The position numbers and the translations under genes are program-made. This document shows, piece by piece, positions 9,176 through 64,000 of a DNA stretch of 64,000 nt. A model generated the notes under the pieces. That model had not been told where the DNA came from, did no database searches, and saw nothing but the letters and a program-made list of their open reading frames with translations. The DNA comes from Acidiferrobacterales bacterium (GTDB taxonomy: Bacteria; Pseudomonadota; Gammaproteobacteria; Acidiferrobacterales; SPGG2): positions 3,142 through 67,141 of the forward strand of contig CAXMNC010000230.1 in NCBI GenBank assembly GCA_964194625.1. The letters run 5' to 3'. The stretch's first letter is position 1; each line of letters starts with the position of its first letter.

Positions 9176-11530
9176 ATGGAATGCGGTGCAGGACATGATG
9201 CTAGCGCAAGAAAAGCGATGAACGACGAGTCGTCGGGTTGGAGGCAAACTTCTATGGGGGGCGGGTTGCAGTGTCAACCGTTGGTGTCAGCGATTGCGCC
9301 GCATGAGTTAGGGGTTGCAACACTAACACCGGTTGGAGATTTCGAGGCTGGTGCCTACCAAACCTTTACCCTTATATACACCGCGGGTAAGTATGGCATC
9401 GATGACTCGGGGTCACTTCGGGTATGTTTTCGTTTCGCGTCTGACCAAAGCCGCCCCCAATTCGAGGATCCTGCTCGCGTCGGATACACGACGATTAGTG
9501 CTTCCAATGATGCAGTTTTGCAGTATCGCTATGATCCCAAAGGCAATGTGCGGCCTTGGGATCGAACGCTCTATATCAAGGTCGTCCATGGCTTTTTGCG
9601 CGACGGCGATACCATAACGATACGATTCGGTGACACCTCCAAGGGATCGCCGGGCATGCGCCTGCAGACCTTTTGTGAAGACACCTTCCAGTTCCATGTA
9701 CTTGTGGATCCCATCGCCACCTATAGCTATCAACCCTTGCCCGTGCAGTCGTCGATCCGGATCGTGGCGGGTGCGCCCAAATGTTGGGTGGCGGTATTAC
9801 CCACGCTGCGTCGTGTGGGTGACGCCTTTGCACTTAAGCTCAAGGTCGAAGACAAGTGGGGCAATCCTTCAGACAAGGTCGATACCGAGATCTATCTCGC
9901 GTCAAACCTTGCGTTGCAGGGTCTACCGGAACTGGTTCGCTTTAGGCCGGGTGAATTCGCCCATGTTGTCGACGACATCACAAGCCAAGAACCCGGCGAT
10001 CTCGTTATTACCGTCAAGCGTAAAAATGGCGATCTTCTAGCAGAAAGCAACCCGTTGCGACTCGTGGGCGCTGCGGATTTGCTGCCATATTGGGCCGATT
10101 TGCACGGCCAATCAGAAGAGACCATCGGTACCAATAGTGCCCGCCAATATTTCGAATTCGCGCACGATAAAGCCTTCGTAGACGCCACGGGTCACCAAGG
10201 TAACGACTTCCAAATAACGAATGAGTTTTGGGCCGAACTCGACCGGCTTAGCGCCGAGTTTAACGAGCCTGGCCGATTTGTGACCTTGCCCGGCTACGAG
10301 TGGTCCGGCAATACCGGCCTTGGCGGCGATCGTAATGTTTACTTCACCCAAGAAGGACGACAAATCAGGCGCTCTTCGCATGCGTTGGTCCCTGATCGTA
10401 GCGATCTGCACACGGATGCAAATACTGCTGGCGAACTGTTTCAGGCATTCGCACGAACCGACGAAGACGTGGTGTGTTTTGCGCATTGTGGCGGTCGCTA
10501 TGCCGACGTGAAGCTCGCCCACGACGGTCTCTTTGAGCACTCCATGGAAGTGCACTCGTCTTGGGGTACGTTCGAATGGTTGGTGCAGGACGCATTTGAG
10601 ATGGGCTATCGGGTCGGTATTGTCGCCAATTCTGATGGTCACAAGGGTCGGCCCGGCAGTAGCTATCCCGGCGCCTCGCTTTTCGGTGCCATTGGCGGAC
10701 TCACGTGTTTACTCATGCCGGCGTTAACTCGAGATGAATTGGTGCAGTGCCTGCGTCGCCGTCGCCACTATGCAACGACGGGTGGGCGCATGGTCATCGA
10801 TGTCACAGCGGAATTTCCTCAGGGTGGCACGCGCTATCATGACGATCCTGCGCTAGTAGACTCAAAAGGCGAGCCGGCAACTACAGCTATGATGGGCGAC
10901 ATCGTGCAATTGTCGCGCGGCGATGTCACCCTGAAGGTAGACATACTCGCATCGGCACCGATTGAACGCTTGGAAATCTTCAACGGGCTTGAATCGCTCG
11001 AAACGGTGCGAGCTCATACGCCAGCCGAACTGGGCAACCGGATCCGCGTGGTGTGGGAAGGCGCCGAGTACCGTGGTCGTTTCCGGCAGGTGATCTGGGA
11101 CGGGGAGGCGACGGTGTCAGATAATCGTATCCTCGATGCGCGTCCGATTAACTTTCTCAACCGGGAAAAAACCCTCGAAATTGTCGGTGACAACGGGCTC
11201 GCCTGGCGCGCCCTGACCACCGGGAATATCGGCGGCTTTGATGTATGGCTCGATGATCCTTACGGCGGCACGCTTAAGCTCGAAACCCCAGTTATTAAAT
11301 GCGGCATACCGTTAGAGGATATTGGGTTCGATGATGAGGTTATCGATAATTCAGGTGTGTTGCCGCGATTTGTCCGTATTTTTCGTCTACCGACAGACAA
11401 TCCCCATCGTACCCTGCGAATTCAGCGTACCATCAACATAGTGCCCGATCGCGACAATCCGATCTTTATCAAGCTCACACAGGAAGATGGCCATATCGCT
11501 TGGACCAGCCCGATCTACTTTTTTCGCTGA
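9176..11530 (+). CDS. large conserved hypothetical protein, possible metal-dependent hydrolase (PHP/DUF3604-like guess)
   Basis: 784-aa ORF with strong coding appearance. The central block YWADLHGQSEETIG ... GYEWSGN ... NSDGHKG suggests a metallohydrolase core. The family call is uncertain and the start is not resolved. Confidence 0.6.
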   Translation: MECGAGHDASARKAMNDESSGWRQTSMGGGLQCQPLVSAIAPHELGVATLTPVGDFEAGAYQTFTLIYTAGKYGIDDSGSLRVCFRFASDQSRPQFEDPARVGYTTISASNDAVLQYRYDPKGNVRPWDRTLYIKVVHGFLRDGDTITIRFGDTSKGSPGMRLQTFCEDTFQFHVLVDPIATYSYQPLPVQSSIRIVAGAPKCWVAVLPTLRRVGDAFALKLKVEDKWGNPSDKVDTEIYLASNLALQGLPELVRFRPGEFAHVVDDITSQEPGDLVITVKRKNGDLLAESNPLRLVGAADLLPYWADLHGQSEETIGTNSARQYFEFAHDKAFVDATGHQGNDFQITNEFWAELDRLSAEFNEPGRFVTLPGYEWSGNTGLGGDRNVYFTQEGRQIRRSSHALVPDRSDLHTDANTAGELFQAFARTDEDVVCFAHCGGRYADVKLAHDGLFEHSMEVHSSWGTFEWLVQDAFEMGYRVGIVANSDGHKGRPGSSYPGASLFGAIGGLTCLLMPALTRDELVQCLRRRRHYATTGGRMVIDVTAEFPQGGTRYHDDPALVDSKGEPATTAMMGDIVQLSRGDVTLKVDILASAPIERLEIFNGLESLETVRAHTPAELGNRIRVVWEGAEYRGRFRQVIWDGEATVSDNRILDARPINFLNREKTLEIVGDNGLAWRALTTGNIGGFDVWLDDPYGGTLKLETPVIKCGIPLEDIGFDDEVIDNSGVLPRFVRIFRLPTDNPHRTLRIQRTINIVPDRDNPIFIKLTQEDGHIAWTSPIYFFR

Positions 11531-16370: not shown

Positions 16371-17324
16371 TTAGTCGCTAGTTCGCAAGGACAGGGGTAG
16401 TGTGGTTTTTAACCAATCGGCGTAACGCTTGATGCCTTCTTCGAGCCCGACTTTTGGTTCGTAATCTAATTCTGCTGCAGCCCTGCCTATATCTAGTGCC
16501 TCGCTACGACGCATGAGTTCGCCGGGACCGACATGTACGGGGACTGATGAATATGTGTACTTCTTCGCTAGTTCTACGACTTCACCGACGCTGTGTGCTT
16601 GGCCGGTCGCGATATTGAACACTTTGTGCCTCAAGTTCTCGGCATTGAAGAGTAGTGCGATCCCACGGGCCGCATCCTCCACATAGGTAAAGTCTAGCTT
16701 TTGGTCGGCGCCTTTATCCATGTTGAGTCCTTCCAATCCTTCTAGGGCACCAAAAGCGATTTTGTAAAGCTTGATGAACCGAGAGGGAAGCTTTCCCGGG
16801 CCGTAGACAAAATAAAGTCGGGCCACTCTGAAATCCATGCCAAACGTTTGCGCATATTGAATGCCAATATGCTCGGCTGATGTTTTGGTCGATGCGTAGA
16901 GATCGGTTGGGTATAACGGCAAGGATTCTGTGGGCAGGCCATCAACCACGCCGTATACTGCACCGGTACTCGTGTAAAGGACCTTTTCGATTTCAAACAC
17001 CCTCGCGAGTTCGAGCACATTCACAAGCCCCATAACGTTGAGGCTGATGTTTTGACGGGGGTCAATTTCCACGAACTCACCCATGGTGGCCACTGTATGG
17101 ACAACGCCATCGATATTAGTGTGGTGGTGCTCGAACACTTCTCTGAGTGCGGCGAAGTTCAGAACATCGCCCTTAATGAAGGTAATTCTGTTTGCGACCT
17201 CGATAAGGCAGTCGGGGGCATCATCGTTAGTATCGTAGACGATGATGTCTTGACCCTGTCGGGCGAGTAGCAAGGCCGTCCAGGACCCGATATGTCCGTA
17301 ACCCCCGGTAATAAAAATGGCCAT
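16371..17324 (-). CDS. NAD-dependent epimerase/dehydratase family protein
   Basis: N-terminal ITGGYGHIGSW Rossmann motif and YASTKTSAE (YxxxK); 317 aa. Confidence 0.85.
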   Translation of the reverse strand: MAIFITGGYGHIGSWTALLLARQGQDIIVYDTNDDAPDCLIEVANRITFIKGDVLNFAALREVFEHHHTNIDGVVHTVATMGEFVEIDPRQNISLNVMGLVNVLELARVFEIEKVLYTSTGAVYGVVDGLPTESLPLYPTDLYASTKTSAEHIGIQYAQTFGMDFRVARLYFVYGPGKLPSRFIKLYKIAFGALEGLEGLNMDKGADQKLDFTYVEDAARGIALLFNAENLRHKVFNIATGQAHSVGEVVELAKKYTYSSVPVHVGPGELMRRSEALDIGRAAAELDYEPKVGLEEGIKRYADWLKTTLPLSLRTSD

Positions 17325-43430: not shown

Positions 43431-43637
43431 ATGCGTACGGGAACTGTAAAGTGGTTCAGTGAATCCAAAGGATATGGTTTTATCACGCCGGAGGATGGCG
43501 GCAAGGACGTTTTTGTCCACCACTCCGCAATTACAGGCACGGGTTTTAAGTCCCTGGTTGAGGGGCAACGTGTTAGCTTTGATGTCAAAGATGGACCGAA
43601 GGGTTTACAAGCGGTCGACGTGGCTGCCAGCGGCTAA
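43431..43637 (+). CDS. cold-shock protein (CspA family), copy 2
   Basis: [31 protein letters not shown]. The first roughly 140 nt are nearly identical to copy 1 and the 3' third has diverged. Confidence 0.95.
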
Positions 43638-45037: not shown

Positions 45038-45226
45038 ATGATGACGGAGAAATTGGCTGCGAAAGACAAGAAAAAAAAACGACAAGAGAGCGCGAGACGC
45101 GTAAAAACAGAGCGCCGCGATAAAGGACGCTGGGAACCTGAGGATGAGGACCGTCGGGAGGGGTTTGGTCGCCGCACACAGGACAAGGCCTGGGATCGTA
45201 TCAACTCCAAATTCGATAAACCGTAG
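45038..45226 (+). CDS. small Arg/Lys-rich protein, soluble paralog of the TM Arg-rich mini-proteins
   Basis: GGAG precedes ATGATG. The C-terminal half ERRDKGRWEPEDEDRREGFGRRTQDKAWDRINSKF aligns with the ORFs at 57802 and 61164. Confidence 0.45.
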   Translation: MMTEKLAAKDKKKKRQESARRVKTERRDKGRWEPEDEDRREGFGRRTQDKAWDRINSKFDKP

Positions 45227-46934: not shown

Positions 46935-47013
46935 GAGCGCGTATAGTGGGCGTCAGAGATAGCGATGGTGCCTTTATGCAAGCCAAAATAATATCGATAA
47001 TAAGCCGCATTGG

Positions 47014-48033
47014 GTGTTCACGCCGACAAAGAGCAAGGCGCATCTATCCAGATCGGCGTATCGAAATGCGAGAAGAACTGGTGCAACGCCGTGCCGGTCA
47101 GCGTCGCAAAGACGACCGCTAGCATTCCCTGCCTATCAGTCGACCCTGATTCTTACGGTGAATGAGGTGCCCGAGACTCCACTTCGGGTAACGACTAGCC
47201 GCAAGCTTGCTGACGAGTGGGCATTAGTTCTTGTGGCGGAGGGTTTGTCGCCCAGCGTGTGGGAAGGAACGCAGGGCGTTGTTGTCGGTGTGCCACCAGA
47301 AGAGGTCGAACAGGCCACAAACGCTTTGTTGGCTTATGAGAGCGAGAATCCCGTGGCACCGCCGATGCCTACCGAATGGAGGGGTTCGGCGCCGTTATAC
47401 GCAGCACTCGTTTTTTCGATCTTGCTTCTCGATTTTTTCTTTATTACCGATGTCTGGGATTCTGAAATTCGTTGGACTGAAGTCGGTGCCGCGGATGCAG
47501 CGCTGATTGTGCAAGGCGAATGGTGGCGTACGGTCACTGCACTGACGTTGCATGCTGATCTCAAGCACGTTTTAGGCAACGTCATTGCCGGTGCTGTCTT
47601 TTTGCATATCGTATGTCGTGCCATGGGTCCCGGACTTGGCAGTCTTACCGTGCTCGCGGCAGGCGCTGGCGGAAATCTCGTAAATGCATTCTTTTACGGT
47701 TCGCTGCACATTTCCATAGGTGCTTCGACTGCTGTGTTCGGTGCGCTGGGTTTAATGGGGGGCATGGGGGTTGTGCGTCGCCGCCGACATGGCGCGCAAG
47801 GGCGACACGTATGGGTGCCGATAGTCGCGGCTTTGGCAATACTCGCCATGCTGGGCACGGCGGGCGAACGGGTGGATCTCTTGGGGCACCTGTTCGGATT
47901 TTTGGTCGGTGGCGGGTTAGGTATCGTCGTTGGGATCATGGTGTTGCGACCACCAGAGGGCCGTATTCAGTGGGCCCTCGTTTGCACAACAATCATGCTA
48001 ATCGGCGTATGTTGGGGATTTGCACTGGGCTGA
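47014..48033 (+). CDS. rhomboid family intramembrane serine protease
   Basis: WWRTVTALTLHAD ... GASTAVFGALG (GxSxxxF) ... HLFGFLVGG, with a cytoplasmic N-terminal domain. GTG start; the start is uncertain. Confidence 0.85.
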   Translation: MFTPTKSKAHLSRSAYRNARRTGATPCRSASQRRPLAFPAYQSTLILTVNEVPETPLRVTTSRKLADEWALVLVAEGLSPSVWEGTQGVVVGVPPEEVEQATNALLAYESENPVAPPMPTEWRGSAPLYAALVFSILLLDFFFITDVWDSEIRWTEVGAADAALIVQGEWWRTVTALTLHADLKHVLGNVIAGAVFLHIVCRAMGPGLGSLTVLAAGAGGNLVNAFFYGSLHISIGASTAVFGALGLMGGMGVVRRRRHGAQGRHVWVPIVAALAILAMLGTAGERVDLLGHLFGFLVGGGLGIVVGIMVLRPPEGRIQWALVCTTIMLIGVCWGFALG

Positions 48034-50906: not shown

Positions 50907-51743
50907 TTAAGATTGTACGGTCGGGACCCAGGCGGTGGTGCGCCCAGAAATAATGGTGTGTGCAATCCTCTCACCGCGGGCGGTAGCGGCGTCTTCGCAC
51001 TTGCCCCACCGTTCGTGAAACAACCAGTGGCGTGGGTAGCAGGTACTATCCGCATTAGCTCTGACCGCAATTCTGATCACCGATTTCAGTGCCCGGTGAA
51101 GCCGCCTGACTTCTTCATGGCTCAACGAATGGGCGCGCCGGCGTGGATCAATACCTGCCTGGTATAGCACTTCATCCGCAATCCAGTTGCCAACCCCGGC
51201 GGAGAAACTCTGATCTAAAAGCAGGGACTTAATGATCGCACTACGCCGCTGGAGCATTTTTTCGAAACTGCGCGTGGTGGGCGGATTGAGCAACGGGTCG
51301 AAGCCGAGTTTGTTTAAAGGCGACTCATTTAATGGGTCTTTCCGTAGAAGGATACGGCCCAATCGGCGGGCGTTAGTCATGACAAGTTCGCCACCATCGT
51401 CAAAAAAAAGATGAATCTTTGTGAATCGTGGTGGCCATGTCAGATTAGCTGTCTTTGGTCCCGACTTGAGCTGTAAGGGGAGTGCGGCCGGTGTGTGAAA
51501 TGCGCTGGTCATACCAAAATGAAACAAGGGGTGGGGTGGGCGGGCGAGCTCGAACCACAAGAATTTACCGTGACGTCGTACTGCCAACACCTCGTTGGAT
51601 TTTAGCGCGCGCTGAAATTTGACGGGGGCGATGTTCTGAAAGACAATCGTATCTCGAGCGCAGCGTACCTGGATTATGGTTCGCCCTTGCGCTACCGATG
51701 CTGCCAATCTTCGACCGCGTTCTACTTCCGGTAGTTCCGGCAT
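50907..51743 (-). CDS. Fpg/Nei family DNA glycosylase, zincless-finger type
   Basis: N-terminal MPELPEVE catalytic motif and H2TH region (LLLDQSFSAGVGNWIADEVLYQAGI). There is no CxxC...CxxC zinc finger at the C-terminus. Confidence 0.85.
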   Translation of the reverse strand: MPELPEVERGRRLAASVAQGRTIIQVRCARDTIVFQNIAPVKFQRALKSNEVLAVRRHGKFLWFELARPPHPLFHFGMTSAFHTPAALPLQLKSGPKTANLTWPPRFTKIHLFFDDGGELVMTNARRLGRILLRKDPLNESPLNKLGFDPLLNPPTTRSFEKMLQRRSAIIKSLLLDQSFSAGVGNWIADEVLYQAGIDPRRRAHSLSHEEVRRLHRALKSVIRIAVRANADSTCYPRHWLFHERWGKCEDAATARGERIAHTIISGRTTAWVPTVQS

Positions 51744-55511: not shown

Positions 55512-56087
55512 TTAGTTGGCCAAACCCAACTCTTGCTTGAGGTGGCGCACACAGGTATTGAACGCGCTCTGCCCGGCTACCCGGGCGATTTGAAGCGCAC
55601 CCTGTAAGGTGGCAGCAATCAGAATTGCCTGTTCCTCGGCCGATCCCTCGAAATGGAGCAGTTCCTGTTCACGACCTTCCTCTAGGGCGATGGCGAGCCA
55701 CGCGCGCATCTGCTGGTCGAGCGCGACGACTTCAAACTGCATCTCCTCCGGCAGCGTGTTGAACTCGACCTCCAGCGCGCCCAAGGGGCAGACTTTGCCA
55801 CCATCGCGCAGGTAGCGCCAGGGGAGTGTCAGATAGGCCTCAAACTTGAGCACTGGGGATGCTTCACCGGCCTCGAGAAGCTCAGTATATTGCTGAAACC
55901 GGGCACGACAGCGCTCGATTAAGGCGACACCTAGATTGGTTTTGGTGGGAAAGTGATAGTGGATCGCCGCGTTTTTGACCCCGAGCGGCTGCGCAATATG
56001 ATTGTAGCTAAAGGCGTTGAAGCCGCGGTCTTGCAGTAATGCTTCAGCCGCGTCGAGGATCTGTGTTTTCGTATCGGCTTGTGCCAT
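55512..56087 (-). CDS. TetR/AcrR family transcriptional regulator
   Basis: N-terminal HTH ILDAAEALLQDRGFNAFSYNHIAQPLGVKNAAIHYHF. Confidence 0.9.
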   Translation of the reverse strand: MAQADTKTQILDAAEALLQDRGFNAFSYNHIAQPLGVKNAAIHYHFPTKTNLGVALIERCRARFQQYTELLEAGEASPVLKFEAYLTLPWRYLRDGGKVCPLGALEVEFNTLPEEMQFEVVALDQQMRAWLAIALEEGREQELLHFEGSAEEQAILIAATLQGALQIARVAGQSAFNTCVRHLKQELGLAN

Positions 56088-56433
56088 AGACCGCCACCCG
56101 AAAAAACCTACCTACAGGTAAGTAATGAGTAGTAACCAGTGACACGCTTGTCAAGCTTGTGTTAACTGGGCAAACGCTGAGGATGCTGTCAAACTGTTTG
56201 GATGTAGGTCATAGAGATGCGGTGAGCGTTTGGAAATGTCAAAAACAAAGAACAATCGCGCTAAGAGGCCAAAGAAACCGAAGCCAGCAGGTCCTAGCAC
56301 GCGCAATATGCAGTCAGCCGCGCAGACCCGCAAGGTTCTTGGCAAGCATTACGCCAATAAGTACAGAGTGAGCTAGCTGAATTTGAAATAGCACCAGGAA
56401 GGTGCTGATGGTCGGTTGGAGCGTTTGCGGTCG

Positions 56434-56793
56434 TTAGTGTGTTGTAGTGGCCGCACCGCCGTAAATGAAGCTACCATCTAGAGCGAAAATCCCCACCACT
56501 GCATTTGATTGACCGATAAAACGGGTGTGTACGTAGATCGAGCCGTCGTCCTCGTACTGATAGAAATAGGGCGGCTCGGCCTGCAGATCGTAGAAGCCGG
56601 TGAGCTCACGCATACCCTGCTGGTCGGTCAGCTGCAGTATGTATGTCTCTAGATCAGTCATGTCTACGTATGTCTCTAGATCAGTCATGCCTCTACCACT
56701 ATAGCCTATGGCTTGGGATTGGCTAGATACTGGTAACACAGACCCACGCAAGATGTACGGATTTTCGCGGGAACCTGCGTGAACCCAGCACAA
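56434..56793 (-). CDS. hypothetical protein containing an in-frame 9-aa tandem duplication
   Basis: 119-aa ORF, family unknown. It contains MTDLETYVD/MTDLETYIL, encoded by the 27-nt tandem repeat. The start is uncertain. Confidence 0.4.
   Translation of the reverse strand: MCWVHAGSRENPYILRGSVLPVSSQSQAIGYSGRGMTDLETYVDMTDLETYILQLTDQQGMRELTGFYDLQAEPPYFYQYEDDGSIYVHTRFIGQSNAVVGIFALDGSFIYGGAATTTH
56641..56694. repeat. 27-nt tandem duplication (2 copies)
   Basis: GTATGTCTCTAGATCAGTCATGTCTAC is followed directly by GTATGTCTCTAGATCAGTCATGCCTCT. Confidence 0.85.
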
Positions 56794-57119
56794 CCAGAGG
56801 TTTGTGATCTATAGTTTTAGGCGGGTGTTCAACCGAGGCAATGCACAAATGCAACCGAAAGCAGGCGCAGCCGCCGGCTACAAAAGCAGTGAGCGGCGTA
56901 AATCAATGAGACGCACAAAGGCGGATCGCCGCACCCTAACTCGGGCGCCACGATACTGGTCGTCGCCAGGACGACTGATTTAGCAGACCAAATTCGATCC
57001 AACACCACGTAGGGTTGGGACTCGTAGACAGCGAGGACGTGCCGGATGTCGGTGCGTCGTTTGCTATGCACCGCCGCCTTGAGGGCGTGAAATAGTTTGC
57101 AACCCTGGCCTAGTGTCAC

Positions 57120-57710
57120 TGTAACGCGATTCTTCAAATCTTCGAATCGATTTACAAGTTCGCGTTTCCTGCTTGCACCGGGAAACGGTAGTACTCTCAT
57201 TTTCTTTATGTGCCCCTCGAAGTGCGTTCGGGCAGTGGATTCCGGGATGCGCTTTCGAAAGAAAACCACACACTCAAACGTGCGCTCACCGACCCGCGTA
57301 TCATAAGCGGCATCGGGAATTCATATTCAGACGAAATCCTACTTGCCGCTAGGCTGTCGCCGTTCAAACAAACGCGCATGCTTTCGGGCGATGAGTTTAC
57401 GCGCCTATACCGCGCTGCGGTTGAAACACTGACGTATTGGATCGAGAAGCTGCGTATGGATGTGGGTGATTCTTTTCCGGAGAAGGTAAGCGCTTTTCGT
57501 GAGGGGATGGTGGTGCACGGTCGTTACCGTGAGTCCTGTCGTGTATGCGGCGCTCCGATCCAGTGAATCGTCCATGCAGAGAATGAATGCAATTCCTGCG
57601 CGCGCTGCCAAACTGGCGGTAGGCTTTTGGCAGATCGTGCGCGCTCGCGCCTGCTCAAGGCCAACTGGCCGAAGACGCCGGACGAGCGAGAAGGGCACAG
57701 ACCCTCATGA
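57120..57710 (+). pseudogene. Fpg/Nei family DNA glycosylase (zinc-finger type), decayed
   Basis: H2TH block ENHTLKRALTDPRIISGIGNSYSDEILLAARLSP. The zinc finger CRVCGAPIQ-TGA-IVHAENECNSCARCQTGGRLLADR is split by an in-frame TGA (57564-57566). A further in-frame TAG lies at 57189-57191. No recognisable MPELP N-terminal domain is present upstream. Confidence 0.7.
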
Positions 57711-57801
57711 CCGTGGCCCGGAGCGCATTTGTAGCGTAGGAAATTGGCCCATTCCTTGCAGGGTGCCCTTTGGGTGAATACTAGAAAGGATACGCAAGGA
57801 C

Positions 57802-58065
57802 ATGGTTCTGCCCGTCGAATTGCTCATCGTGGCCGCTGCCACGCTGATTTTTGTGGGATCTGTGCGCTTGTACGCCAGCCATAGGCGCGCCGGAATTGAA
57901 AGCAAACAGGCCATCACCATACCCCCGAAACGACCAGAACGGCGCCTACGAAAGCGCCGTCTACGGACCGATCGCCGTGCATGTATCCGCCTGGAGTCCG
58001 ATAGGCGTCAGGACGGTGGCCGCCGAAGGTCAGATCAATGGGAAGGATATCGAGCCCGGTTCTGA
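57802..58065 (+). CDS. small membrane-anchored Arg-rich protein (paralog B)
   Basis: N-terminal TM LLIVAAATLIFVGSVRL, then PERRLRKRRLRTDRRACIRLESDRRQDGGRRRSDQWEGYRARF. Aligns along its length with ORF 61164-61424. Confidence 0.55.
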   Translation: MVLPVELLIVAAATLIFVGSVRLYASHRRAGIESKQAITIPPKRPERRLRKRRLRTDRRACIRLESDRRQDGGRRRSDQWEGYRARF

Positions 58066-58424
58066 CCGACCTACGGGCTTGGCTGGCCTCCCGTAAGGCC
58101 CGCCGATCAGCTTTACTTGAGCCTGACACGTTTCGCGTCCCCTCCCATCGTTTATGGAATTACTCCAACGCATCTGCGACTTGCCCCAGTGGTCGCTGTC
58201 CGACAGTGCCACAGCCGTTATCCAGCAATTCTGGGCGGGTTTGATCCCCCCTCAGACAAGGTATTGCTGCTCTCCGAGGGTGTTAAGTGGGTACCGGTCG
58301 GTGAGCGCATCATCCAACAGTGGTAATTCGGCTCGGCAATATCCTTTATTTCCACGCCCGATCGTATATACCTTTTAGAAGCAGGTGGGTTACGTAGGCC
58401 ACGCGCGACTCGCCAACTCAGCAC

Positions 58425-61028
58425 TTGCTTTCAATCACTCGCTCGGTCGTGGTGGCGGAGTTGGTATGCTCACGTCCGCCGCGCGCCAAATGGGGTCGCC
58501 AAGGGATAGCCGTGAAAACAGCCTTCTGGAAAAAAGACTGGTTTATCGGCCTCGCCGTCACCCTACTCTTTGTACTTCTGGCGGATACACACCCGTTGCA
58601 CTACCTCGACATGAAGGCCTATGACGTTGGTGTGTGGTCTTCTTTAGAACGCACTGCTAATGACAACATTGTTGTCATCGCCATTGACGATACTTCCATC
58701 GAGCGTATTGGGCAATGGCCGTGGTCACGAAGTGTTCTCGCTGACGTCAATCAGCATCTTGTCGCGGCACGCCCGGCCGTCATCGGTTATACCTTATCTT
58801 TTGACACCGGTCAGAATGACCACGGCCTCGCGGTCTTGCGTGATCTTCGAGATTCGAACAAAAAATCGCTAAGCAAGAAAGCCGATGCGTTGCTCAAGAA
58901 AGCAATAGGCCGGATTGATAGCGACCGTCGATTGGCGGCCAGCTTTAGAAAATCAGGAAATGTCGTGCTTGCCATGCCCTATGAAGTGGGACGCGAGGCG
59001 ACTGGAGCTAAACTGTCGAAAACGCTGCAGAAGCATACTCTTAGTATCGATAACAACCCCACGCCACTAAATCTTGCCGGCCTACCGGGTTTTATCCTAA
59101 ATCCTGATGCGTTGTCGGTCGAACGACTGCATGTGCCGATCCCGGTATTTAGCCGAGCGGCGGCTGGAATGGGTCTAGGCGCACAGGTATCGCCACGACA
59201 GGCCAATATCTCGAGTGTGCCGTTAGTCATGGCCTATGGTGAGCATTATTTGCCTTCGTTCTCGCTTGCTATGGCAGCCCAAGGTTTGGGTTTGAAGCAT
59301 AACGATCTGAAAGTGGATTTGGGTGGCCGCGTAAAGTTGGGCGCGGACTGGATGGCGACCGATGCAAGGTTGCGGGCCTATCCCTTTTTCTACAAAATGC
59401 GCGACGACAGCTCGCCGTTTAAGGTTTTTTCTTTTCGCGATGTGCAAAAACGCAAAGTGCCGCTGAAGGTGTTTCGCGACAAATTAGTATTGATTGGCCT
59501 GACTAGCAGCAGCCTTACGAAGGCATTGGTGACGCCGATCGGCGAGTCCATGGCGCCAGTGATGGTGATGGCGCACACGATATCGAGTCTCTTAAACGGT
59601 GATCTGTATGATGCCTCCAGCCTCACAAGGTGGGGGCGGATGATCGGCTTTCTACTTGTGGCCTTCTATCTCATGTTTATTCTGCCGCGTCTCAGACTCG
59701 GAACCGGTCTCGCCGTAAGCGGGCTAATGTTGATCGCACTTTTCAATGCCCACCTAGTGTTGATGACATTGAAATCCATGTGGGTGCCATTGATGGTTCC
59801 GGCGATAGCTCTGATCACCGGACACCTGTTGTTGGCTGGCAAGCGCATGCTCCACGATAGGGTGGCTGCATATAAGGTCGAGCTTGCCGAGTCCAATCGT
59901 ATGCTTGGGCTTTCGTTCCAGTCGCAGGGACATTTAGACATGGCATTCGATAAGTTTCGCAGGTGCCCAGTTGACCACTCGATGATGGAGCTGCTCTACA
60001 ATCTTGGGCTCGATTACGAACGCAAGCAGCAATTCAACAAAGCGCACAATGTGTATCAGCATCTAGCAGAGCATGATTCCAAGTTTCGAGACATCAAAGA
60101 GCGCCTGACTCGAAGTAAGGCGGTAGGGGAGACCGGTGTTTTCGTCGGTGGTGTCGGTGGAGCAGGGGCTGGTACCTTAATCGTTGATGGCGAAGGCCTG
60201 CAAAAACCAATGTTGGGGCGCTACGAAATCGAAAAGGAACTGGGCAAGGGCGCAATGGGTGTCGTCTATATAGGTAAAGACCCCAAGATCAGTCGCGTTC
60301 TAGCCATCAAGACATTGGCGTTGTCTCAAGAATTTGAGGGCGACAAACTAGTAGAGGTCAAAGAGCGATTCTTCCGGGAGGCTAAAACAGCCGGGCGTCT
60401 AAACCACCCCAATATCGTAACTATCTACGATGTGGGTGAGGAACAGGACCTTGCCTATATCGCCATGGACTATGTGCAGGGTGAAGACCTATCTTTGCAT
60501 TGCGAACCTGACAAGCTCCTATCGGTCGAGGAAGTGATGGAGATTACGGCTCAGGTAGCCGAGGCGTTGAACTATGCGCACGATCAGCAGGTTGTACACC
60601 GAGATATTAAACCTGCCAATATTATCTATGATCGGGAAAATGGTATCGCCAAGGTAACGGACTTTGGTATTGCCTGTCTCACCGACACCAGGAATACGAA
60701 AACCGGTGTTGTGTTAGGGACACCTTCCTATATGTCACCACAACAGCTCAGCGGCCAACGGGTAGATGGACGCTCGGATTTGTTCTCTCTTGGCGTTACA
60801 TTCTATGAACTGCTCACGGGAGAGCTACCCTTCGATGGCGAGTCGCTTTCTACTCTCGTTTACAATATTGCTAACAAGAAGCACCGGGATGTTCGCAAGG
60901 TACGCTCAGGACTTCCCCCGTGTGTGGCGCAAATAGTCAACAAGGCTTTACACAAGGATCTAAAAAAGCGCTTCCAGACGGGTAGCGACATGGCCGAGGC
61001 GTTGCGAAATTGCCAAGAAAAGATGTGA
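58425..61028 (+). CDS. CHASE2 sensor domain Ser/Thr protein kinase
   Basis: CHASE2 pattern FWKKDWFIGL...VVIAIDDTSIERIGQWPWSRS, TM helices, and Hanks kinase motifs GKGAMGVVY, AIK, HRDIKPAN, DFGIA, GTPSYMSPQ. A more likely start is GTG 58512, preceded by AAGGGA. Confidence 0.9.
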   Translation: MLSITRSVVVAELVCSRPPRAKWGRQGIAVKTAFWKKDWFIGLAVTLLFVLLADTHPLHYLDMKAYDVGVWSSLERTANDNIVVIAIDDTSIERIGQWPWSRSVLADVNQHLVAARPAVIGYTLSFDTGQNDHGLAVLRDLRDSNKKSLSKKADALLKKAIGRIDSDRRLAASFRKSGNVVLAMPYEVGREATGAKLSKTLQKHTLSIDNNPTPLNLAGLPGFILNPDALSVERLHVPIPVFSRAAAGMGLGAQVSPRQANISSVPLVMAYGEHYLPSFSLAMAAQGLGLKHNDLKVDLGGRVKLGADWMATDARLRAYPFFYKMRDDSSPFKVFSFRDVQKRKVPLKVFRDKLVLIGLTSSSLTKALVTPIGESMAPVMVMAHTISSLLNGDLYDASSLTRWGRMIGFLLVAFYLMFILPRLRLGTGLAVSGLMLIALFNAHLVLMTLKSMWVPLMVPAIALITGHLLLAGKRMLHDRVAAYKVELAESNRMLGLSFQSQGHLDMAFDKFRRCPVDHSMMELLYNLGLDYERKQQFNKAHNVYQHLAEHDSKFRDIKERLTRSKAVGETGVFVGGVGGAGAGTLIVDGEGLQKPMLGRYEIEKELGKGAMGVVYIGKDPKISRVLAIKTLALSQEFEGDKLVEVKERFFREAKTAGRLNHPNIVTIYDVGEEQDLAYIAMDYVQGEDLSLHCEPDKLLSVEEVMEITAQVAEALNYAHDQQVVHRDIKPANIIYDRENGIAKVTDFGIACLTDTRNTKTGVVLGTPSYMSPQQLSGQRVDGRSDLFSLGVTFYELLTGELPFDGESLSTLVYNIANKKHRDVRKVRSGLPPCVAQIVNKALHKDLKKRFQTGSDMAEALRNCQEKM

Positions 61029-61163
61029 TAATGCTTTGAATAACATGGGAGCTAACCTCGAGGTTGACCGGCTTGACATCGCACATCGTTGGGATTAGGT
61101 TCCCAAGCTGGAAAGGAGCCAGTGTGAACCGCCATGGATGCACACCTGTGAGGGCTGGGGCTC

Positions 61164-61424
61164 GTGTTGTTACTAATCAAAGTGCTCATTGCTGTTGGTG
61201 CGATTTTGGTGTTCTTTGGTTTCGTTCGCATGCTTGCAACTAGCAAACGCAGCCAAAAATCACCGATCCCCAGACCAGTGCGAAAGCTTGAACGGCGGCT
61301 CGTGCAGCGTCGAATGACTACCCAGCGGCGAACGTCGGTACGTTTGGAAACGGACTCAGATCGTCGCCATGGTACAGGCCGCCGTGGTGGCGATAGCTGG
61401 GACGCAGCTAGGTCCAGATTTTGA
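61164..61424 (+). CDS. small membrane-anchored Arg-rich protein (paralog C)
   Basis: N-terminal TM VLIAVGAILVFFGFVRM, then LERRLVQRRMTTQRRTSVRLETDSDRRHGTGRRGGDSWDAARSRF. Confidence 0.55.
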   Translation: MLLLIKVLIAVGAILVFFGFVRMLATSKRSQKSPIPRPVRKLERRLVQRRMTTQRRTSVRLETDSDRRHGTGRRGGDSWDAARSRF

Positions 61425-61542
61425 TGACCGCCGGCTTTTAAGTATGCTTTATTGTAGTGCTTGTCGAATCCTGAGAATTTAGTCTCCTGCCATTACTTAT
61501 TTAAATAGTGCACTGCGACTGTAAGGCATTCGTGCTCGGTAT

Positions 61543-63063
61543 ATGTTTATGCTCGCTGGCAGACACATAATCACCGTCACTTTGGTGTGTCTGTTGAATG
61601 GCTGCGATGTTTCAGTCGAAAATCGCACGCCTTCTGCGTTCGACAGCACGCCTGAAGACGTGTATCCCCTTACCGCCCGTGTGAAGCGCGGGTTACTTGT
61701 CTATAGCCTGAACACGGATGTGACCGTGGATGGCCGACGGCAGGATATGACTAGTAGCGGTGGCACGATCTGGCGCTATGACCATGCTGCATCATGTAAG
61801 TCAAGCGTGGATTTCTTCTACGACGTCAACTACTACTGGCTGATGCTGTTCTTGCCGACATCAGAACATAAACGATTTCCATCTTCTGACATCATTCGTG
61901 CAGATATTGTACGGCAGCCATCCTCGCTAGCGCTTAGCGGTTCAGATGTCGCAGTTGGCGACACCGTCCAGTTCAGCGCTACTATCAAAGACGCAGCGGG
62001 TTGTGATCTCGGCAGCGCGAACGCGGGGTGGAGCAGTGATGATCCGAATATCGCATCTGTTGATGCAAGCGGTCTGGTCAGAGGTGAATCATTGGGTTCA
62101 ACTACGATTCACGCCAGCCCTGCCAGTATCAATGCGAGCGCGCCTGTGATCGTGTATGTACAGGGTAACGATCAAATTGCTTTGCAAAATAACATAAGCA
62201 ATGACAATGCGGTGGTGCTATTGGATGGAAAGCAACCATCGGGTTGTGTGAATGATGACGTGTATAGAGGTAGTACGGGGGTTGATGTCGACAACGTGTT
62301 GCCGAGTAATGGTTGCAGTTCGGAAGTAGTCGTCATGTCGGATGACAACGCCTTGGAAGTCGTTAGTCCCCTCAGTCTGTGGACGGAAGCCGCAGGTGAC
62401 CAATTAACAGTCGACCTAAAAGATCCGCTTTCGTTGTCGCTTAGAATCTGGAGCGTGCATGGCGACCACCAATTGGTGCAGCAAAAGGCGGAGGTAGATC
62501 TTATCTGGGCAAATGTAACCTTTGGCGATAGCCATGCCGGCATCATATTTCCGGCCGAGTTTACTGATAAGACTGGTGACGCTGATCCCGCGAAGAGCTA
62601 CGCATACTGCAACCTTCACATGGATATTATGCAGGACATTGGCTATGAGCCTGGCAAACTGAACGTCTACTATGTGGATCGTGTGCTTCAAACTAGCGCT
62701 AACGCAGTTGGTGCCTGGTGCGGGACCTTCGGCATGGGCGGCATCATTCTCATAGAGAACACGGCACCTATATCGACACTTGCGCATGAGCTAGGGCACG
62801 CCTTATCACTTCAGCATGTCGATGCCGTAGATCTCGATGCGGATGGCAACCCGGATTTTGAGATGTGGACGAATGTCATGTTGACGGGTTCGGATCCGGC
62901 GATTACTCCAACCTTTACGGAGGGACAGGCATTTCGCGTCAATGTCAACGAAATATCGTTTCTTAATGCGATTGGTGTCCGCAGCGGTGTTACGCGAAAC
63001 TGTGCTGTGGGTGAGCATAATCGCACATGCCCAGCCGTCACCCTCGATTTTCCGAACGACTAG
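61543..63063 (+). CDS. lipoprotein with Big_2-like Ig domain and metzincin-like zinc protease motif
   Basis: Lipobox LLNGCDV, Big_2-like block VGDTVQFSATIKDAAG...SSDDPNIASVDASGLVRGESLGSTTIHAS, and zinc motif HELGHALSLQH (HExxHxxSxxH). Confidence 0.75.
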   Translation: MFMLAGRHIITVTLVCLLNGCDVSVENRTPSAFDSTPEDVYPLTARVKRGLLVYSLNTDVTVDGRRQDMTSSGGTIWRYDHAASCKSSVDFFYDVNYYWLMLFLPTSEHKRFPSSDIIRADIVRQPSSLALSGSDVAVGDTVQFSATIKDAAGCDLGSANAGWSSDDPNIASVDASGLVRGESLGSTTIHASPASINASAPVIVYVQGNDQIALQNNISNDNAVVLLDGKQPSGCVNDDVYRGSTGVDVDNVLPSNGCSSEVVVMSDDNALEVVSPLSLWTEAAGDQLTVDLKDPLSLSLRIWSVHGDHQLVQQKAEVDLIWANVTFGDSHAGIIFPAEFTDKTGDADPAKSYAYCNLHMDIMQDIGYEPGKLNVYYVDRVLQTSANAVGAWCGTFGMGGIILIENTAPISTLAHELGHALSLQHVDAVDLDADGNPDFEMWTNVMLTGSDPAITPTFTEGQAFRVNVNEISFLNAIGVRSGVTRNCAVGEHNRTCPAVTLDFPND

Positions 63064-63075
63064 GTGCAGGGGACC

Positions 63076-63582
63076 ATGTTAAACCGCAAACTAATGACAA
63101 TCGCAATGGCTTGTTGGCTAGTGGGGTTAACAGAGTTGGCGGCTGCAGCGGCCGATGGGCCGGAAGACGCACGGCTGGCGATCACAAACTGGATTCGTTG
63201 CATTGAGTGCGCAGATGGAGAGTTGGATCGGTTGACCAAATTCGGCCAGGTGATCGTGCCTCATTTGTCTACGATGTTGGCCGGTGGCCCAGCCCAATCG
63301 GCACGCGAGCATGTGCAACAGCTAAGCATAGTGACCCATGAAAGACTTAACGCGTATGCGAAACAAAATCAGCACTCACGATTCTCGATGGATAGAGAGG
63401 TCTTCCTAAAAATATATTTTGACAATTTTGTCTTTCATTATCGGAGCCGCGCAGCACACGCGCTGGCAGCGATCGGTGGAGACAGAGCAGAACAAGCACT
63501 TGCAGAGGCGCTAGAGACAGCCGCGCATCCCCGCCTCAAGGCGCAACTTCAAAGCCTACTCGAGCAGGTAAGATCGAACTAA
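63076..63582 (+). CDS. exported HEAT/PBS-lyase-repeat-like protein
   Basis: Signal-like N-terminus, then an all-helical sequence with AAHALAAIGGDRAEQALAEALE, which resembles a HEAT repeat. It begins immediately after the protease gene. Confidence 0.55.
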   Translation: MLNRKLMTIAMACWLVGLTELAAAAADGPEDARLAITNWIRCIECADGELDRLTKFGQVIVPHLSTMLAGGPAQSAREHVQQLSIVTHERLNAYAKQNQHSRFSMDREVFLKIYFDNFVFHYRSRAAHALAAIGGDRAEQALAEALETAAHPRLKAQLQSLLEQVRSN

Positions 63583-63599
63583 GACACGACTAGGCATCG

Positions 63600-64000
63600 T
63601 TATTCGACGATCGCAAAGACTAGTCGATACTGTGCCACGCCTTCGAAGTCAGACAAGAATTTCTTGAACCTAACTTTGAAATTCGTTTGCTTTCCGGAGC
63701 GAATGCTTGCGATGGCGCGTGTAACAGACTGAGCATCGGATTCAGCCGCTACTAGGCGGCCCTTGGGGTCGAATAGAGCGATACCGATATGACCCTTCAC
63801 CGCCTTGGGTGTCCTATTCCAGACGATGACCAGCGCTTCGTCGCCGGAAAAGCTAATGCTTTCCAGCTTGACGCCCTTATGATCAAGCGCCAGTTCTACT
63901 GGCTTGTCGACGATCACCTTGCCGGTATGGGAAATACGACTGAAATTCTTGGGCGCCTCCGCCGCCTTGGCACTAGGTATTACGAACACGGCAGTAACCG
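63600..64000 (-). CDS. hypothetical exported protein, 5' end probably beyond the window
   Basis: The ORF stays open to the window edge. The visible N-terminal part (VFVIPSAKAAEAP) looks like the end of a signal peptide. No family recognised. Confidence 0.5.
   Translation of the reverse strand, partial: VTAVFVIPSAKAAEAPKNFSRISHTGKVIVDKPVELALDHKGVKLESISFSGDEALVIVWNRTPKAVKGHIGIALFDPKGRLVAAESDAQSVTRAIASIRSGKQTNFKVRFKKFLSDFEGVAQYRLVFAIVE

Follow-up and report, generated by a model that had tools for sequence, protein, structure and literature searches.

Two Small Paralogous Genes Flank a CHASE2 Kinase Gene

The DNA analysed here, a stretch of 64,000 nucleotides from contig CAXMNC010000230.1 of an Acidiferrobacterales bacterium (hereafter the window), carries near its 3' end a gene for a CHASE2 Ser/Thr kinase with one small open reading frame (ORF) on either side. 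These two, ORF A upstream and ORF B downstream, had been described in an initial annotation as paralogous, membrane-anchored, Arg-rich mini-proteins. Their coordinates, plus-strand orientation and translations were confirmed, as was their position around the kinase gene on the same strand (Table 1). The end-to-end alignment reported earlier was reproduced in BLASTP, with 44% of residues identical from one end to the other (E = 3e-17), and judged by sequence the similarity of A and B is far beyond chance. A protein identical to B was found in public data (P0002), and the orthologues of A were 74–92% identical to A. The orthologues of B start with ATG, while B in the window starts with GTG.

Each protein is made of an N-terminal transmembrane (TM) helix, a linker and an Arg-rich module. 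A contains 20 Arg in its 87 residues, and the net charge of the tail is +14 in A and +13 in B. As read from the sequences, the n-region (MVLPVE or MLLLIK) is followed by a hydrophobic stretch of 17–18 residues, with R22, HRR or KR directly after it. A model of A made with AlphaFold (AF2) from 36 sequences had a predicted local distance difference test score (pLDDT) of 81–95 at residues 1–30, which include the TM helix, and of 53–60 in the tail. A cleavable Sec signal peptide, leading to a secreted cationic peptide, was considered and rejected. Such a signal would have an n-region that is basic and a short h-region leading to an AxA cleavage site, behind which no positive cluster is expected; the lack of a basic n-region in A and B, the Arg or Lys directly after the TM helix and the soluble homologues without any hydrophobic segment argue against it.

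The DNA of the two genes was found to have diverged more than the protein motif, as had been proposed. In the codon alignment, the proportion of synonymous differences (pS) was 0.77–0.79 and thus saturated, while the proportion of nonsynonymous differences (pN) was 0.31 in the module and C-terminal half. Moreover, only 4 of the 15 Arg common to A and B are encoded by the same codon. Because the motif was kept despite saturated synonymous sites, 35 intact close orthologues were found and the same nine Arg recur in distant homologues, A and B are real genes and not random GC-rich ORFs. An explanation of A and B as non-coding or RNA elements was also considered and rejected. Rfam detected no RNA family in 56000–64000, and a scan for promoters and terminators gave counts no higher than in shuffled sequences.

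Table 1. Positions of the kinase gene, ORFs A and B with their parts, and the further module matches in the window.
Feature	Position	Strand	Description
CHASE2-TM-TPR-Hanks-type Ser/Thr kinase	58512..61028	+	838 aa from GTG at 58512 (probable start); longest ORF starts at 58425
ORF A	57802..58065	+	87 aa, ATG start; TM helix, variable linker, Arg-rich module
ORF A TM helix	57811-57864	+	approximately residues 4-21
ORF A Arg-rich module	57934-58062	+	residues 45-87; module hidden Markov model (HMM) 55.6 bits
ORF B	61164..61424	+	86 aa, GTG start; paralogue of A; weakly constrained
ORF B TM helix	61167-61226	+	approximately residues 2-21; linker after it
ORF B Arg-rich module	61287-61421	+	residues 42-86; module HMM 65.1 bits
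ORF C	45038..45226	+	62 aa, soluble; Lys-rich N-terminus, then module, ending WDRINSKFDKP; module HMM 59.9 bits, E 5e-17
ORF D	46946..47122	+	at most 58 aa; possible degenerate member (SRRQRARRIYPDRRIEMREELVQRRAGQRRKDD); regular-expression match; uncertain
ORF E	56804..56983	+	truncated remnant with the first half of the module only (ERRKSMRRTKADRRTLTR); HMM E 4.9e-5, profile positions 2-24

An Arg-Rich Module Shared by a Wider Family

The part common to A and B is a module of about 45 residues, which across the family can be written as [ED]RR-x3-RR-x3-[DE]RR-x3-R-h-[ED]-x3-6-[DE]RR-x2-3-G-RR-x2-D-x-W. It is built from six regularly spaced Arg pairs, usually with Asp or Glu before each, and ends in G-RR-x2-D-x-W. 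In alignments of the homologues nine Arg were invariant, and one further Arg, the Gly and the Asp were nearly so. A, B and a third protein of the window, C, matched the whole module profile (alignment A7), and two further ORFs, D and E, matched it partially.

The initial annotation had suggested that homologues be sought by profile with the shared motif, and such homologues were found. A profile built from A and B retrieved 35 proteins, all of them close orthologues of one or the other. An exhaustive profile search of 1.84 billion representatives gave 20 proteins at E <= 1e-3, among which were distant relatives with one TM helix, longer membrane-bound proteins and proteins without a TM helix. 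With the module alone the search reached 91 proteins at E <= 0.1, most of them soluble and 50–67 residues long. Among the soluble members are proteins annotated as 'hypothetical' from Marinobacter hydrocarbonoclasticus, from several species of Marinobacterium and from Ferrimonas and Gallaecimonas.

The module occurs in several architectures. It follows one TM helix in A and B, a longer hydrophobic N-terminal region in a 127-aa protein from an Acidiferrobacterales metagenome-assembled genome (MAG) and in a group of proteins of about 186 aa, and a Bac_transf (membrane sugar transferase) domain in one fusion. Outside the lineage of the window, little of the TM helix is conserved except a hydrophobic stretch with Arg after it, and most family members have no such helix. 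The module is thus a conserved, selected and portable unit. No autonomous fold was predicted for it: AF2 on C with an alignment of 64 soluble sequences gave a pLDDT of 62 and a predicted template modelling score (pTM) of 0.18, the pTM across A and the soluble alignment was 0.18–0.29, and no strands were predicted.

The statement that the family is not a recognised one was upheld. Searches of Pfam, NCBIfam, PADLOC and PDB sequences with A, B, C and nine soluble homologues returned no family match, the sole hit being a TM-like match below threshold; for the kinase, generic kinase-domain hits were obtained. No relative of the family was found by tblastn against plasmids and phages, and literature on CHASE2-kinase partners, Arg-rich small membrane proteins and Arg-rich receptors of cyclic di-GMP (c-di-GMP) yielded nothing on it. 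By sequence, A and B belong to an undescribed bacterial small-protein family that is defined by the strongly basic module of about 45 residues. Two orthologues of B (P0021 and P0026) carry the name 'Flp pilus assembly protein TadB' in JGI annotation, which is evidently spurious for an 86-aa member of this family.

Further Copies of the Module in and Beyond the Window

Further copies were sought in the six-frame translation of the window by tblastn, by regular expression and with the module HMM. The expression RRx3RRx3[DQE]RR had 4 matches, against 0.03 expected from order-1 Markov simulated sequences. All five module matches, A and B included, fall within the final 20 kb of the window, and there is none in the first 45 kb.

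ORF C was detected by tblastn with A (E = 7e-5) and has a GGAG 6–9 nt 5' of its ATG. Its orthologues (P0076, P0085 and P0089) were 82–97% identical with the module kept, and a cNMP-binding gene adjoins it. ORF D, which lies between the cNMP-binding/rhodanese gene and a rhomboid gene, matched the module HMM marginally (E = 0.025); its sole comparators are 99.3% identical, and the region is intergenic in other annotations. The loci L027–L030 were 99.3% identical over the 2.4-kb segment compared. ORF E lies about 0.8 kb upstream of A and is antisense to a minus-strand ORF, a homologue of a 179-aa minus-strand gene in the related locus L001. The counterpart of E in L005 (6166–6315) has a nearly complete module (E = 2e-6), and that in L001 (9017–9163) is degenerate; copy E is clearly decaying.

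In L001, a protein of 127 aa is encoded at a position just past the 3' end of the window (16652–17035); its TM helix is N-terminal, and it has no Pfam match. It has a Cys-rich segment (C-x9-C ... C-x5-C-x-C) followed by a C-terminal half-module, DDRRVSERR...DRRSGGGRRLDEG, and would make a fourth gene with the module within about 9 kb of the kinase. A repeat search around the locus found no common flanking DNA that marks a mobile unit, and the upstream regions of A–E had no common motif.

Cold-shock-domain (CSD) genes were observed 1.5–6 kb from two unrelated members, namely C (CSD gene at 43431–43637 in the window) and the 187-aa protein P0057 (CSD genes at L016 2780–2983 and 14123–14326). Their proximity may be due to chance, or may hint weakly at a role connected with RNA.

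Selection on A and B

The loci with the arrangement A-kinase-B came from marine-sediment metagenomes and two MAGs, one of which is SPGG2, a deep branch near Gammaproteobacteria from oxic South Pacific Gyre sediment. The kinase had an omega of about 0.15, with differences at the three codon positions of [253,128,652], and the protease-like gene downstream of B had an omega of 0.19–0.27 with [136,113,357]. For A the omega was 0.2–0.5, and its differences, [40,28,76], were in excess at the third position. For B the omega was 0.4–1.1 with a flat distribution of [65,61,76], and its divergence matched or exceeded that of the spacers on either side.

The divergence of B is concentrated in its TM and linker half (61164–61286), which is the most variable stretch from A to the HEAT-like gene; the module was kept in the orthologues. 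Between L011 (1064–1321) and the window, the neighbouring genes differ by 1.5–2.4% and B by 12%, nearly all of it in the N-terminal half. This hot spot could be due to recombination, to diversifying selection or to relaxed constraint. In L004 the copy of B has an in-frame stop and the changes R>W, R>H, D>G and D>A, by which invariant Arg and Asp were lost.

These data bear on the view that A, B or both are non-functional, that is, chance ORFs or neutrally evolving relics. The nearly neutral pattern of B, its divergence relative to the spacers, its broken copy in L004 and its GTG start in the window would fit such a view, as would the decay of copy E. The omega of A with its third-position excess, the module kept in both genes despite saturated synonymous sites, the 20 distinct intact B-type proteins with every invariant Arg kept and the distant homologues in cultured genomes stand against it. 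We consider this view very improbable overall; for A it is essentially excluded, and for B it amounts to a statement of recent relaxation only. A is a constrained gene, while B keeps the module in most relatives but appears relaxed and drifting towards loss.

Relationship of A and B to the Kinase

The initial annotation had proposed that A and B are substrates, co-receptors or regulators of the CHASE2 kinase, citing conserved Thr/Ser residues in the Arg-rich tail. In a dedicated system of this kind the kinase would act through phosphorylation of the tails or pairing of TM helices. A, the kinase gene and B are co-directional and close together. Moreover, the decaying third copy E lies just upstream, and the fourth TM protein with a half-module lies a few kb downstream in L001, a clustering that is unlikely under random placement. 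The divergence of the A-kinase spacer is 0.12, compared with 0.28 for the stretch upstream of A, a difference compatible with a common transcript.

The conservation of the gene order was found to be uninformative, because every A-kinase-B locus is 87–97% identical to the window DNA over 6.2 kb, spacers included. A scan of GTDB genomes with the B alignment returned two MAGs only and a scan of metagenomes returned four loci; as all of these belong to the same narrow lineage, they cannot test synteny either. For more distant family members 10 contexts were looked up, several of which are on short contigs, and none showed a Pkinase gene. Among these members, P0042 is next to an LPG-synthase TM protein (LPG_synthase_TM) and a GDPD gene, P0057 next to an integrase and a DUF3592 protein with two CSD genes about 5–6 kb off, P0052 next to a TonB-dependent receptor, DUF6763 and a prophage-like block, P0037 next to VanZ, P0041 next to a HEAT_2 protein, Ysc84 and GST, and P0040 next to GST; P0036 is on a short contig with unannotated ORFs. 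The Marinobacterium copy (P0118) has dinB and an acyltransferase gene as neighbours, the Ferrimonas copy (P0126) has parC, CAT, plsC, rraB and a GGDEF gene, and the C orthologue (P0076) has CSD, PBP, Fer4_19, cNMP-binding/rhodanese and rhomboid genes. In the contexts looked up, family members are thus scattered among unrelated neighbours. Scatter without kinase linkage was the outcome that the initial annotation had itself named as refuting its proposal.

The Thr/Ser residues cited in the initial annotation also varied. Both paralogues have Ser or Thr only at the columns of A T56 and A S66. T56 is replaced by Ala in the A orthologues P0019, P0022, P0024 and P0027 and in P0080; in distant homologues its column holds V/A/L/R/H and similar residues. 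At S66, several A orthologues have Pro or Ala. The module has no conserved Ser/Thr column, its invariant and nearly invariant columns being Arg, Gly and Asp only. Together with the weak conservation of the TM helix outside the lineage, its absence from most members and the near-neutral evolution of B, these results indicate that a functional link of A and B to the kinase is not supported, and that only their position within one narrow lineage ties them to it. We regard a dedicated kinase system as unlikely.

Proposed Function of the Module

The explanation that we favour, although we would place it somewhat short of an even chance as a whole, is that A and B are locally duplicated members of a family whose disordered cytoplasmic module binds a polyanion, most likely RNA, and that in these two proteins the module is tethered to the membrane. 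Under the positive-inside rule, the N-terminal helix of A and B would be an uncleaved anchor with the N-terminus out and the C-terminus in, since the n-region is not basic, Arg or Lys directly follows the helix and the tail has a net charge of +13 to +14. Such an orientation would put the module on the cytoplasmic face of the inner membrane, a placement with which the soluble homologues agree. The module itself may be a disordered Arg-rich motif that becomes ordered on binding. By analogy with the Arg-rich motif (ARM) peptides of phages and viruses and with the tethered Arg-rich segments of RNase E, its ligand would most likely be RNA; as the specific ligand, RNA is held with less confidence than the explanation as a whole. 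A and B would then hold RNA or ribosomes at the membrane, and C would act in the cytosol. The arrangement around the kinase would most simply be a local expansion of the gene family in this lineage rather than a kinase-dedicated system; E, A, B and the fourth copy just past the end of the window lie within about 9 kb.

Several points weigh against this explanation. The case for RNA binding is drawn entirely from composition and analogy. The strict spacing of the Arg pairs and the invariant Gly, Asp and Trp suggest a ligand or partner more specific than a generic polyanion. Three to four copies clustered at one receptor kinase are above random scatter, and a lineage-specific link to the kinase is possible. 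Some contexts contain genes of lipid metabolism (LPG synthase, GDPD, acyltransferases) or of cyclic nucleotides, which fit rival ligands equally, and the family-wide sample is small, with 10 contexts and several short contigs.

Among these rival ligands are the anionic membrane lipids phosphatidylglycerol (PG) and cardiolipin, or polyphosphate. The module would in that case serve lipid or envelope homeostasis at the membrane surface, the soluble forms being peripheral. The high positive charge and the conserved Trp or other aromatic residue are typical of interfacial binding, LPG_synthase_TM with GDPD, VanZ or acyltransferases are neighbours in several contexts, and one member is fused to the Bac_transf membrane sugar transferase. 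However, the neighbours vary from case to case with no recurring gene, and plsC and parC, which neighbour the Ferrimonas copy, have the look of ordinary housekeeping genes. Nor are acidic residues among the Arg or so strict a spacing typical of simple lipid-binding polybasic patches, and we think it improbable that lipids or polyphosphate are the ligand.

Short Arg-rich segments are also known to become ordered around c-di-GMP, as in PilZ, the I-site and BldD. If the module were to sense a nucleotide second messenger such as c-di-GMP, its Arg pairs and acidic residues would clamp guanine bases, in the manner of the PilZ RRxxxR loop or the RxxD I-site, and its Trp would stack on a base. The string RRxxxR is present twice, and an invariant RRxxD has W after it; a GGDEF gene lies by the Ferrimonas copy, a GGDEF-EAL gene about 4.5 kb downstream of B in L001, and a cNMP-binding gene by C. 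GGDEF genes are abundant in these genomes, so that their proximity is weak evidence, and most contexts have no cyclic-nucleotide gene. The likeness to the PilZ switch loop is in the two RRxxxR strings. PilZ itself (PF07238) combines this loop with (D/N)xSxxG on a beta-barrel of about 100 residues; the second motif was not found in the module, there was no Pfam match up to E = 1, and AF2 predicted no strands, so PilZ was rejected. We give a second-messenger receptor little credence.

A further account would combine the module and the kinase. The module would be a new ligand-binding unit, for structured RNA or a nucleotide second messenger, in use across marine Gammaproteobacteria, and its tethered copies would have been recruited around the CHASE2 kinase as cytoplasmic targets or adaptors in a deep-branching sediment lineage. 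We regard such recruitment as a distinctly long shot; if true, it would link a signal from outside the cytoplasm with the handling of RNA or ribosomes at the membrane.

Comparison With Known Systems

Returning to the explanation by polyanion binding, the ARM RNA-binding peptides (lambda and P22 N, HIV Rev and Tat) resemble the module in being short basic segments with ERR/RRxxRR-type strings and a conserved Trp that are predicted to be disordered alone. ARM peptides fold only on their RNA target. A fits the description of a short Arg-rich segment predicted to be disordered alone: 20 of its 87 residues are Arg, its tail has a charge of +14 and a pLDDT of 53–60, and the pTM across A and the soluble alignment was 0.18–0.29. 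However, there is no sequence homology, and the family has no antitermination or viral context. The module is also longer, at about 45 residues, with six regular Arg pairs and an invariant Gly and Asp, and occurs stand-alone or membrane-anchored; for it RNA binding is proposed by analogy.

In membrane-tethered RNase E, the C-terminal domain (CTD) contains Arg-rich disordered short linear motifs (SLiMs; AR1, AR4 and REER repeats) that bind RNA (PMC11964227). Like the module, these segments (AR1, AR2/AR4, REER) are disordered, alternate acidic residues with Arg and are located at the inner membrane (PMC11964227). They differ in being part of an enzyme of more than 1000 residues, in being anchored by an amphipathic helix, the membrane-targeting sequence (MTS), rather than a TM helix, and in their repeat unit, RE[ED]R compared with [DE]RR-x3-RR. 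Pfam and PDB-sequence searches gave no similarity to RNase E. The family thus resembles the ARM peptides and the AR segments of RNase E in kind and not by homology.

Two further types of small membrane protein were compared with A and B and rejected. YqjD, ElaB and YgaM are small membrane-anchored proteins with a charged cytoplasmic part that have been proposed to hold ribosomes at the membrane. They share with A and B the small size, the single TM helix and the charged cytoplasmic part. However, these proteins (DUF883) have a C-terminal TM anchor while that of A and B is N-terminal, there was no Pfam match, and the soluble part is unrelated. Type I toxins (such as Hok, TisB and Fst) are likewise encoded by a small ORF and have one TM helix, at the N-terminus, together with a charged tail. 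A type I toxin is a hydrophobic protein of fewer than 60 aa paired with an antisense RNA encoded in cis or in trans; A and B have 86–87 aa, most of the family is soluble, and no antisense RNA, Rfam match or toxin context was found (Rfam, 56000–64000).

Significance of the Family

The immediate significance of these results lies in a new, well-defined family of the DUF type that has both soluble and membrane-tethered forms; a new signalling system it is not. Should the module bind RNA or a second messenger, the binding units of bacteria would gain one that is very small, portable and so far unannotated, and the tethered versions of the module would be a simple way to localise the ligand at the inner membrane. 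The module is present in the cultivable genera Marinobacterium, Marinobacter, Ferrimonas and Gallaecimonas, which are open to genetic study. The family also makes a case for small-protein annotation, as gene callers left these ORFs of 50–90 aa unnamed or misnamed, and a profile of the A7 type would recognise them.

Neighbouring Genes and Other Features of the Locus

The kinase matched CHASE2 (E = 8e-39) and Pkinase (E = 4e-56) in Pfam, with a TPR_2 match (E = 2.6e-5) under the curated cut-off. Because its orthologues are called at 838 aa, the GTG at 58512 is probably its true start. The kinase domain spans approximately residues 565–838. The gene 3' of B, which the initial annotation had called a metzincin lipoprotein, encodes a putative lipoprotein of 506 aa. 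A Big_2 domain and the zinc motif HELGHALSLQH are present, but the peptidase matches were below threshold. For the next gene, encoding a 172-aa protein described as HEAT-like, a HEAT_2 match was obtained, also below threshold. A HEAT_2-repeat protein is located near the distant one-TM member P0041 as well (L021 3352–4155), and the HEAT-like protein of the window (63064–63582) is two genes after B.

Just upstream of A, at 57210–57566 on the plus strand, is a 118-aa ORF in which, of an Fpg/Nei glycosylase, the H2TH domain alone is present (E = 9e-15). Compared with fpg at 50907–51743 on the minus strand, which is full-length with 278 aa, the ORF is 34% identical and, from its sequence, is probably a gene fragment. 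In the 160-aa protein P0054, an N-terminal fragment of Fapy_DNA_glyco is fused in frame to an A orthologue. The Fpg fragment and this fusion point to rearrangement at the locus. In L005, a phage-type integrase gene (10455–11186) lies directly after B on the opposite strand, in place of the protease-like gene of the window, so that the locus is a mobile-element breakpoint in at least one strain.

The last 300 bp or so before the kinase start (58220–58520) are the best-conserved non-coding stretch of the locus. The density of variable sites is 0.07–0.18 there and 0.6 further upstream of A, and the divergence of the whole A-kinase spacer is 0.12 compared with 0.28 at synonymous sites of the kinase. 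The stretch may be a leader, a regulatory region or a small ORF. In L003, the spacer has a called gene of 58 aa right after A.

A tandem duplication of 27 nt in perfect register, with copies 93% identical, was found at 56638–56691 within the minus-strand ORF 56434–56793. The small conserved hypothetical protein encoded there thereby has the peptide MTDLETYVD in duplicate, and its 82-aa orthologue in L001 has a single copy.

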